This document shows, piece by piece, positions 12,648 to 13,571 of a stretch of DNA of 64,000 bases. Numbering within the stretch: position 1 is the stretch's first letter; every line of letters begins with the position of its first letter. The notes under the pieces are model-generated. The model was not told the origin of the DNA. It worked only from the letters and a program-made list of their open reading frames with translations, and did no database searches. Source of the stretch: Nitrososphaerota archaeon (lineage in GTDB: Archaea; Thermoproteota; EX4484-205; JAAOZP01); assembly GCA_011605725.1 (NCBI GenBank), contig JAAOZP010000012.1:74238-138237 (forward strand), written 5' to 3'. Both the position numbers and the translations under genes were made by a program.

Positions 12648-13571
12648 GTGAAATGGATGAGGATGTTCAGGTTTAAGCAGGAACAGAAAATTTTTGATAT
12701 TGCCGGCGTGAAGATTGGCGGCCAGCCTGGTCAACTACCTACTGTCATGATGGGAAGCATATTCTACAGTAAACAGAAAATATTTGAGGATGAGAAGGCG
12801 GGAGTATTCTCTAAAGAGAAGGCTGAAGACTTACTGAATAAGGAGAGGGAGATATCGGACAAAACCGGTAATCCGAGGATTGTAGACGTATGCTGCACAT
12901 GGCCCCAGGCTTTTGGAAAACTCATCGAGTTCGTGGCTGACAAGATCGATGGGCCCCTAGCTATAGATGGAACCACTGAGGAGGCGAGGATTGCTGGAGC
13001 CAAGTATGTCGGCGAAGTCGGGTTGTCTGAACGCGTCGTATACAACTCGATAATGCCGCATATTAAAGAGGTGGAGATAAACGCGATTAGGGAGGCGAGG
13101 ATCAAATCCGCCGTCTTACTTACATATAACGCTAAAAACCCTACGATAACAGGAAGGATGCAGGTGCTTGACGAGCTTTTAGCATTAGCCTCGAAAGCGG
13201 GAGTTGAGAAAACACTGGTGGATACGACTGTCCTCGACATCCCTGATCCAGGACCAGTCAGCAAAGCCGTATACTTGGTGAAGGAGAAATACGGGTTGCC
13301 AGCTGGAGCGGGAACGCATAACGCAGTCCAGAGGTGGAACAAGATGCGTAGAATGGATAAAACACTTTTCTCAATCGCAAGCAGCGTAGCCGACGTGCTT
13401 CCAATATTCATGGGGGCGAACTTTGTAATATACGGGCCGATAGATAATGCCTCAAACGCGTATTTCCACTGTGCACTGGCTGACGCTTACGTAGCCTATA
13501 GCGTGCGGCAGGAGTTTGGAACAAGACCGTTAACCAGTAACCATCCATTGTTCAAAATATTCAAAACATAG
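12648..13571 (+). CDS. MtrH-family pterin methyltransferase (tetrahydromethanopterin S-methyltransferase subunit H-like)
   Basis: 307 aa; N-terminal [34 protein letters not shown] resembles the conserved MtrH N-terminus; length fits. Confidence 0.6.
   Translation: [307 protein letters not shown]

Follow-up and report, generated by a model that had tools for sequence, protein, structure and literature searches.

An MtrH-like gene beside formate--tetrahydrofolate ligase in Brockarchaeota-related archaea encodes a candidate methylcorrinoid:tetrahydrofolate methyltransferase

Background

The MtrH family (PF02007) has been split by Kurth et al. into the complex MtrH proteins (subgroup I) and non-complex homologues such as those of A. 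fulgidus, D. hafniense and A. woodii (PMC8630106), and one non-complex homologue, MtoA, demethylates its own corrinoid protein with tetrahydrofolate (THF) in vitro (PMC8630106). Orphan MtrH genes accompanied by a corrinoid protein (CoP) have been described as methyltransferase systems in Bathy-6 (PMC7886697), in Asgard lineages (PMC11291895) and in B. ligniniphilus (PMC10989822), and in Culexarchaeia an orphan MtrH with a CoP has been considered as an entry into either the THF or the tetrahydromethanopterin (H4MPT) branch (PMC9723716). The general notion that an orphan MtrH and a CoP make up a methyltransferase system is already well established. Here, we analyze an MtrH-like gene (12648..13571, + strand) located directly downstream of fhs, the gene for formate--tetrahydrofolate ligase, in a 64 kb stretch of a Nitrososphaerota archaeon contig (JAAOZP010000012.1; assembly GCA_011605725.1), referred to below as the window, and propose that its product is probably the second methyltransferase (MT2) in a THF-linked corrinoid system.

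Such a step has been discussed for the Brockarchaeota. De Anda et al. proposed that these archaea are non-methanogenic anaerobic methylotrophs, in which MtaB or MttB together with corrinoid proteins feed the methyl branch of the THF pathway (PMC8065059). The second methyltransferase of this scheme was called 'lacking' and 'an undescribed protein' was invoked for it; the main text of that paper never mentions MtrH (PMC8065059). Its KEGG Orthology table lists K00584 (mtrH) for six genes, including GD2_1 scaffold_5776_4 and DRTY-6.80 NODE_9_12 (PMC8065059); GD2_1 scaffold_5776 and DRTY-6.80 NODE_9 are the same contigs as two of the loci compared below (L010 and L011). Ftr, Mch, Mer, MCR and carbon monoxide dehydrogenase/acetyl-CoA synthase (CODH/ACS) were not detected in the Brockarchaeota metagenome-assembled genomes (MAGs) of that study (PMC8065059). 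The idea of an undescribed protein was repeated in 2024 for the Gimiplasmatales (PMC11264602), and our literature search found no paper tying a Brockarchaeota mtrH to an MT2 role.

Family membership and active site of the MtrH-like protein

The open reading frame (ORF) at 12648..13571 (+) encodes 307 residues when read from its GTG codon, and the translation holds the N-terminal string on which an earlier reading of the DNA letters (the sequence-only reading) had based its assignment to an MtrH-like pterin methyltransferase. The assignment is borne out by profile searches, which place the protein in no unrelated family. It matches PF02007 practically end to end (residues 11-291, profile positions 1-295 of 299) with an E-value of 2.1e-87 and a score of 293.5 bits against a cut-off of 22.8, and it passes the NCBIfam model NF002142 for 'MtrH family protein' with 298.9 bits (cut-off 287). 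Judged by these scores, the ORF is a member of the MtrH family, far beyond chance. The glycine-betaine-specific MtgA equivalog model, NF047990, is failed with 267.8 bits (cut-off 550). The best sequence match in the PDB is 8Z9U, a chain annotated as MtrH, with 240 bits and 41% identity; no paper on this entry and no source for it came to light, and even the most similar of the fetched loci reaches only 46% identity to it. MtgA of D. hafniense (PDB identifier 6SJ8) aligns over residues 3-307 with 228 bits, an E-value of 1.6e-66 and 39% identity, and MtrH of the Mtr complex of Methanosarcina mazei (PDB identifier 9QTP) scores 174 bits with 30% identity (residues are numbered from GTG 12648 throughout).

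In M. mazei MtrH, four residues (D103, N129, D196 and N230) correspond to the tetrad that hydrogen-bonds the pterin in MtrH and MtgA (PMC12774963, from which our list of pterin-binding residues was taken). This tetrad is intact in the window protein as D107, N133, D192 and N225. Its positions are shared by 88-91 of the 93 family members aligned, and two of them are those exchanged in the MtgA variants 6SJO (D102A) and 6SJP (N227A). At three pocket positions of lower conservation the picture is mixed, with S37 and D80 being MtgA-like and H224 being MtrH-like. We also compared the MtrB-docking region, for which a single reference structure, that of M. mazei, was used. Here, the MtrB-contacting Asp5 of M. 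mazei MtrH is replaced by Lys and Arg211 conservatively by Lys, and the basic patch R239/K242/K243, a proposed binding site for the tail of H4MPT, is R/D/K. As far as an alignment can tell, the docking and patch residues lean away from a complex-bound MtrH.

A neighbor-joining (NJ) tree of the MtrH-like genes, which is crude, is rooted on M. mazei MtrH as the single outgroup and is read for a coarse statement only, groups MtgA and all orphan genes in one assemblage, in which the Brockarchaeota clade containing the window gene is nested among genes linked to CoP, MttB or RACo and lies far from M. mazei MtrH. The phylogenetic comparison with methanogen and bacterial homologues that the sequence-only reading had suggested points, at this coarse level, to MtgA and the orphan MtrH genes, and a placement of the window protein in the non-complex MtrH branch, which includes MtgA and MtoA, is supported by these sequence comparisons. 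Its closest genomic relatives, at 89-96% identity, are MAGs that bear the label Thermoproteota, Nitrososphaerota or, for GD2_1 and DRTY-6.bins.80, Candidatus Brockarchaeota, and the next tier, at 60-75% identity, comes from Bathyarchaeia, Culexarchaeia, Hecatellales and several Asgard lineages. An identical 304-residue protein is found on 11 metagenomic contigs, of which one measures 438 kb, and in the six places shown it is encoded between formate--tetrahydrofolate ligase (FTHFS) and PurN/FolD.

Start codon and promoter of the gene

We aligned the upstream regions of nine clade members and note that ATG 12663, which opens the sequence MFRF, is the sole in-frame ATG kept in all of them. Solved homologues also begin at the position matching this codon. 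Because it is the only in-frame ATG conserved across the clade, ATG 12663 is probably the true start, and the gene for the MtrH/MtgA-type non-complex pterin methyltransferase, a putative MT2 judged from PF02007, the PDB matches and the pterin tetrad, would then span 12663..13571 (+) and encode 302 residues.

Just upstream lies an element, TCTAAAAGTATAAAAAGG (12624..12641, +), that resembles a B recognition element followed by a TATA box (BRE/TATA). It is nearly invariant in seven clade members, and the remainder of the spacer between fhs and the MtrH-like gene is variable. Its TATA box (12632-12639) lies about 27 nucleotides (nt) 5' of ATG 12663. Going by the known spacing between archaeal TATA boxes and transcription starts, TCTAAAAGTATAAAAAGG would be an archaeal BRE/TATA promoter that yields a transcript with little or no leader, and the MtrH-like gene probably has its own promoter and a separate transcript. 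The spacer also contains a perfect 9-bp inverted repeat, GGGAGACTG...CAGTCTCCC (12553-12561 and 12583-12591, +), which is not kept in the relatives, has no match in Rfam and may mark the end of the fhs transcript. An Rfam scan of positions 9400-15500 (E <= 1), aimed at a THF or B12 riboswitch in the spacer, returned no match at all.

Gene neighborhoods in close and distant relatives

The MtrH-like gene lies on the same strand as fhs (10721..12457, +), 205 nt downstream of it, and its neighbors are THF enzymes and not the Mtr membrane complex, as stated in the sequence-only reading. No Mtr-subunit domain was detected in the 59 window ORFs, each of at least 80 residues, that were scanned with Pfam, and an mtrA-G operon context is absent, the gene being flanked by fhs upstream and purN downstream. 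To compare contexts, ORFs were called in 85 MtrH-bearing loci and in the window and clustered using BLASTP, and the cluster representatives were checked against Pfam. The order Fhs(+) MtrH(+) PurN(-) FolD(-) 5-formyl-THF cyclo-ligase/ECF-S(+) FolC(-) is found in the window and in ten out of ten close relatives (L001-L003 and L007-L013), whose MtrH is 88-96% identical.

Upstream of fhs, two variants are seen. In the window and in L007, L009 and L011-L013, a glycosidase-like gene, a URO-D gene, a xylose-isomerase-like TIM-barrel gene and an ORF of 262 residues precede fhs. In the two loci L001 and L002, with an MtrH 88% identical to that of the window, the genes found instead encode an HdrA/MvhD-like Fe-S protein, MetV, MetF and both subunits, small and large, of a [NiFe] hydrogenase. 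In L001 this block (1907-6977), with MetV belonging to DUF5981, lies upstream of Fhs-MtrH and would represent an archaeal methylene-THF reductase module of the MetFV type that is linked to H2. When queries from L001 and L004, including MetF, MetV, the HdrA/MvhD-like protein, [NiFe] hydrogenase and RACo, were run against the window using tblastn, only Fhs and MtrH were matched.

The position of the MtrH-like gene after Fhs, and in L001 also after the MetFV-hydrogenase block, mimics that of acsE in bacterial acs clusters; in two bacterial loci, L005 and L093, a Pterin_bind AcsE sits in the equivalent place next to FTHFS. We therefore considered a role analogous to AcsE/MeTr, in which the protein would methylate the corrinoid iron-sulfur protein of CODH/ACS, with methyl-THF as the donor, for the synthesis of acetyl-CoA and so complete a THF-based Wood-Ljungdahl pathway. 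We rejected this role as highly improbable because the lineage lacks CODH/ACS, the subunits of which are found in no Brockarchaeota MAG (PMC8065059) and in none of the scanned window ORFs.

Among the distant homologues, the association is predominantly with corrinoid systems. Of 79 homologues outside the close-relative set, 55 (70%) have a corrinoid-system neighbor, defined as one within 6 kb of the MtrH-like gene, with CoP next to 36, RACo to 34, URO-D to 26, MttB to 15 and MtmB to 2; for example, RACo is immediately upstream of the MtrH-like gene in L004. MetF/MetV stands beside the MtrH-like gene in four of the 79, and L063, L056 and L032 have MetV-MetF. L080 reads FolC-Fhs-FolD-MetV-MetF-MtrH-RACo, and its MtrH is the one closest to D. 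hafniense MtgA, with 51% identity; the association with THF genes recurs independently in this locus.

The sequence-only reading had also recommended a genome-wide search for corrinoid proteins and their activase. None is found in the window; sibling MAGs with the same Fhs-MtrH gene carry MtaB, MttB, CoP and COG3894, the last of which we take to be the COG usually assigned to RACo-type corrinoid activases. Supplementary Data 9 of De Anda et al. records MtaB and MttB in both GD2_1 and DRTY-6.80, and NODE_4 of DRTY-6.80, a contig other than the one bearing Fhs-MtrH, holds URO-D, COG3894, MtaB and a COG5012 corrinoid protein together (PMC8065059).

Proposed function and alternative readings

The MtrH family membership, the intact active-site residues, the absence of an Mtr complex, the conserved THF synteny and the corrinoid synteny of the homologues form the observed basis for assigning a function. 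We consider it likely that the MtrH-like protein is a soluble MT2, i.e., a methylcorrinoid:tetrahydrofolate methyltransferase of a three-component corrinoid system. Methyl transfer between a corrinoid protein and THF had been put forward in the sequence-only reading, and it finds support in silico from the non-complex branch, the THF neighbors, the 55 of 79 homologues with corrinoid neighbors and the sibling MAGs. We infer THF to be the acceptor because of the synteny with THF genes and because the lineage is reported to be without the H4MPT pathway, and the physiological direction of the methyl flux is likewise one that we infer. The corrinoid partner would be encoded elsewhere in the genome, as the sibling MAGs suggest.

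According to this proposal, the stand-alone TIM barrel would bind the pterin head of THF or methyl-THF through its Asp/Asn/Asp/Asn tetrad and catalyze a reversible SN2 reaction that moves the methyl group between the N5 atom of THF and the cobalt atom carried by a separate B12-binding protein. The latter would cycle between Co(I) and CH3-Co(III). The CoP, the substrate-specific first methyltransferases (MT1; MtaB for methanol and MttB-family proteins for methylated amines) and a RACo-type reductive activase would be encoded elsewhere, as in the siblings. Methyl-THF would then be handed to a methylene-THF reductase, a role that MetFV with [NiFe] hydrogenase could fill in the sister genome and that the 262-residue protein may fill here, and FolD and Fhs would complete the conversion to formate and ATP. 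Alternatively, methylene-THF may be drawn off for glycine, serine and purine synthesis.

Several points weigh against the proposal of an MT2 acting on THF. The 64 kb window holds no corrinoid protein, activase or MT1: a regular-expression search of all its ORFs of at least 80 residues found no DxHxxG motif, in agreement with the sequence-only reading, and B12-binding, RACo, MttB, MtaB and MtmB domains, like those of the Mtr subunits, are absent from the 59 ORFs scanned with Pfam. The partnership of the MT2 with a corrinoid protein is therefore drawn from the relatives and from the published MAG analysis. Co-transcription with fhs is not implied if the MtrH-like gene has a promoter of its own. 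Neither formate dehydrogenase nor CODH/ACS has been reported in the lineage, which makes the energetic pay-off of methyl oxidation unclear. The cluster is largely one of housekeeping folate metabolism (PurN, FolC and 5-formyl-THF cyclo-ligase) and would suit an anabolic role no less than a catabolic one. In addition, the Mtr-complex equivalog model TIGR01114 is passed, if marginally, with 273.6 bits against a cut-off of 271.4, and the pterin-site residues, as aligned, appear not to discriminate THF from H4MPT. Among the candidates for a corrinoid protein, a six-frame search of the window for DxHxxG...SxL...GG gave a sole match near 25439, which is ridden with stops and was dismissed as chance.

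The housekeeping setting bears on an anabolic arrangement, a 'split MetH', in which the same chemistry would run in reverse: methyl-THF would methylate a corrinoid protein, and a short core-MetE methionine synthase or other methylations would draw on the latter. The gene indeed lies among PurN, FolC and 5-formyl-THF cyclo-ligase and not among MT1 or CoP genes, and the window encodes a 318-residue short archaeal-type Meth_synt_2 protein (57713..58669, -), a core-MetE-type methionine synthase homologue with an E-value of 6e-21 for PF01717 and a score of 164.5 bits for NF002119, below the cut-off of 258. Short core-MetE-type enzymes can take methyl-corrinoid as donor, and this homologue is a possible consumer of methyl-corrinoid that would link it to the MtrH-like enzyme. 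The MetFV and [NiFe] hydrogenase genes directly upstream of Fhs-MtrH in the sister genome suggest a reductive flow to methyl-THF, and in a lineage without CODH/ACS methionine would be a sensible sink; an anabolic option has also been raised by Loh et al. for CoP-MtrH pairs beside metE (PMC7886697). On the other hand, a distance of 44 kb separates the MetE-like gene from the MtrH-like gene, to which it is not linked, most homologues adjoin substrate-specific MT1 genes (MttB, URO-D or MtmB), which points to a catabolic methyl input, and the sibling MAGs hold MtaB and MttB systems that need an MT2. We regard the anabolic arrangement, the chief competitor of the catabolic reading, as unlikely.

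The TIGR01114 match and the pterin site bear on another reading, in which the protein is an MtoA-like MT2 dependent on H4MPT, or a remnant of the Mtr complex, and its folate neighborhood is coincidental. Apart from passing that model, the protein shares the His-Asn pair (H224-N225) with M. mazei MtrH, where MtgA has Ser-Asn. H4MPT is also the usual assumption for orphan MtrH in Bathyarchaeia and is built into the published models of Bathyarchaeia MtgA and of MtoA (PMC10989822, PMC8630106, PMC7886697). These points are opposed by the lack of an adjoining mtrA-G and the presence of fhs upstream, by the replacement of Asp5 by Lys and of the basic patch by R/D/K, by an identity of 30% to complex MtrH compared with 39-41% to MtgA and 8Z9U, by a THF synteny that extends over 11 loci and recurs independently in L080, and by the reported absence of Ftr, Mch and Mer from the lineage (PMC8065059). 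An H4MPT-dependent enzyme or a complex remnant is, in our estimate, very unlikely here.

A candidate reductase encoded next to fhs

A THF-based oxidation of methyl groups would also need a methylene-THF reductase, and the 262-residue ORF (9638..10426, +), located between the xylose-isomerase-like TIM-barrel gene and fhs, is a candidate for a non-canonical enzyme of this kind from its predicted fold and its context. No sequence match to it was found in Pfam, NCBIfam or the PDB, and a direct BLASTP comparison with MetF gave nothing significant. The family is nonetheless a conserved one, with 670 matches at 58-80% identity from Omnitrophica, Thermodesulfovibrionales/Nitrospirae, Kiritimatiellia and Actinomycetota, almost all of which are named 'hypothetical'.

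The signal came from profile-profile and fold comparisons only. The AlphaFold model of the protein is a TIM barrel with a pLDDT of 93, and a Foldseek search with this model against the PDB returned MetF (PDB identifier 5UME) as the best match, with a TM-score of 0.69, followed by the flavin-independent mycobacterial methylenetetrahydrofolate reductases (MTHFRs). Using hhalign, the family could be aligned with archaeal MetF across the N-terminal motifs with a probability of 68% and an E-value of 5e-5. Judged by eye, Glu6 and Asp92 may correspond to the catalytic Glu and Asp of MetF and Mfr. With respect to context, the ORF occupies in the Brockarchaeota clade the slot that is taken by MetV-MetF-hydrogenase in the sister genome. 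Homologues in the bacterial loci L005 (8001-8786) and L093 (8001-8789) lie between FTHFS and a formimino-/cyclohydrolase-type gene, in Wood-Ljungdahl clusters that hold AcsE, ACS, FolD and CdhD and show no PF02219 MetF in view; in three other loci the homologue stands alone.

It is a reasonable hypothesis, based on the predicted model and the gene context, that the 262-residue protein represents a new Mer/MTHFR-like type of methylene-tetrahydropterin reductase. In the literature, we found nothing relevant on a non-canonical MTHFR to which this family would correspond, and the ORF may be more novel than the MtrH-like gene itself. If it is a reductase, the family could explain the apparently 'missing' MetF of some Wood-Ljungdahl organisms. 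More tentatively, and with somewhat less than even confidence, we suggest that the MtrH-like gene is the 'undescribed' MT2 of the Brockarchaeota and completes the first THF-based non-methanogenic archaeal methylotrophy, with the 262-residue protein as a new class of methylene-tetrahydropterin reductase.

Other genes of the folate cluster and the window

The remaining members of the cluster are assigned by their profile matches. Fhs matches PF01268 with an E-value of 1e-227 and scores 696 bits for NF010030 (cut-off 652). Downstream of the MtrH-like gene lie purN (13616..14224, -; TIGR00639, 192.7 bits, cut-off 150), encoding a glycinamide ribonucleotide (GAR) formyltransferase, which uses 10-formyl-THF, and folD (14231..15064, -; PF02882 and PF00763), encoding a methylene-THF dehydrogenase/methenyl-THF cyclohydrolase. 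These are followed by a gene for a 5-formyl-THF cyclo-ligase (PF01812, E-value 2e-43, residues 22-201) fused to a membrane domain similar to the S component of energy-coupling factor transporters (ECF-S) (15371..16759, +). The multi-pass membrane part of this fusion has weak matches to ECF_trnsprt and to the FolT family over residues 220-362, and the fusion is kept in 11 out of 11 clade loci, which suggests that it couples folate salvage to uptake. The last gene, folC (16744..18072, -; TIGR01499, 333.5 bits, cut-off 162.7), encodes a folylpolyglutamate/dihydrofolate synthase.

The window also contains four divergent URO-D/MtaA-CmuA-like paralogues, three of them clustered (7488-8561, +; 44839-45903, -; 46013-47122, +; 47134-48300, -), with weak partial matches to models of methylcobamide:coenzyme M methyltransferases. 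When these were considered for an MT1 role, their identity to the URO-D genes flanking MtrH-CoP modules elsewhere proved to be only 21-28%, with the exception of 46013-47122, which is 47% identical to a gene of L028, and because of this low identity no functional inference is drawn from them. The first paralogue (7488..8561, +; PF01208, E-value 6e-18), which has weak partial matches to MtaA/CmuA models, is syntenic with the folate cluster in the clade and, at 21-25% identity to the URO-D genes flanking MtrH-CoP modules elsewhere, is possibly a corrinoid-dependent methyltransferase of uncertain role.

A few further features of the window deserve mention. A gene pair of the HEPN and MNT-like nucleotidyltransferase type (23944-24917, -) lies a few kb from the folate cluster and is syntenic across the clade. 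A bacterial-type pair of acetate kinase and phosphotransacetylase genes (E-values 3e-155 and 6e-111) and an ADP-forming acetyl-CoA synthetase-like pair (ATP-grasp_5 and CoA-binding/Succ_CoA_lig), found at 52359-54571 (-) and 19271-21444 (-), place two acetyl-CoA/acetate routes in one archaeal segment. An acyl carrier protein (PP-binding, 81 residues) is encoded beside a 4'-phosphopantetheinyl transferase (ACPS) at 50398-51041 (-), a pair that is unusual for archaea. Glycoside-hydrolase-type genes (GxGYxYP and GH127 beta-L-arabinofuranosidase) and a C69-like peptidase gene occur at 41238-42557, 48434-50392 and 59860-61755; these genes fit the polysaccharide-degrading lifestyle that has been attributed to the Brockarchaeota.

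Implications and comparison with known systems

Orphan mtrH genes are routinely annotated as 'tetrahydromethanopterin S-methyltransferase subunit H' and then either ignored or read as a hint of methane metabolism. The window protein carries this database name, probably wrongly as far as its function goes: the surrounding genes speak for a folate enzyme, and mtrH is accordingly no safe marker of methanogenesis or of H4MPT. The value added to the published model of Brockarchaeota methylotrophy is modest, namely a concrete candidate for the step that was declared missing, and the pathway gains named and clonable parts in MtaB or MttB, a corrinoid protein, the MtrH-like MT2, methylene-THF reductase, FolD and Fhs. 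The non-complex MtrH/MtgA/MtoA-type MT2 is an already known class, and the window protein very probably acts on THF as one of its members, as far as sequence and gene order can indicate.

A comparison with the described systems places the window protein as follows. MtrH of the Na+-pumping MtrA-H complex (PDB identifier 9QTP) is a homologous TIM barrel with the same tetrad and catalyzes methyl transfer between the pterin and the cobamide carried on MtrA (PMC12774963); it differs in its identity of 30%, in the mtrEDCBAFG operon, which the window lacks, and in Asp5, which is Lys here. AcsE/MeTr and the pterin module of MetH (Pterin_bind, PF00809) are analogous methyl-THF:corrinoid TIM barrels that belong to another Pfam family, to which the window protein has no detectable match, although AcsE holds the equivalent place next to FTHFS in the bacterial clusters L005 and L093. 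MtoA of Methermicoccus shengliensis and 'MtgA' of Ca. Baizosediminiarchaeum ligniniphilus are likewise stand-alone archaeal MtrH homologues and serve as MT2 of O-demethylase systems (PMC8630106, PMC10989822). Their genes lie inside operons with MT1, CoP and activase genes and their proposed acceptor is H4MPT, whereas the window gene lies among THF enzymes in a lineage reportedly without the H4MPT pathway.

Of the characterized proteins, MtgA of the D. hafniense glycine betaine system (PDB identifiers 6SJ8 and 6SJN) differs from the window protein in its gene context, as the window gene lies in an archaeal folate cluster with no adjoining MttB-family MtgB or corrinoid MtgC, and in the residue before the catalytic Asn, which is Ser in MtgA and His in the window protein. 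The two proteins nevertheless share the family, a length of about 305 residues, an end-to-end alignment and the catalytic Asp and Asn; both would be soluble and outside any Mtr complex, and the acceptor proposed for the window protein is likewise THF.

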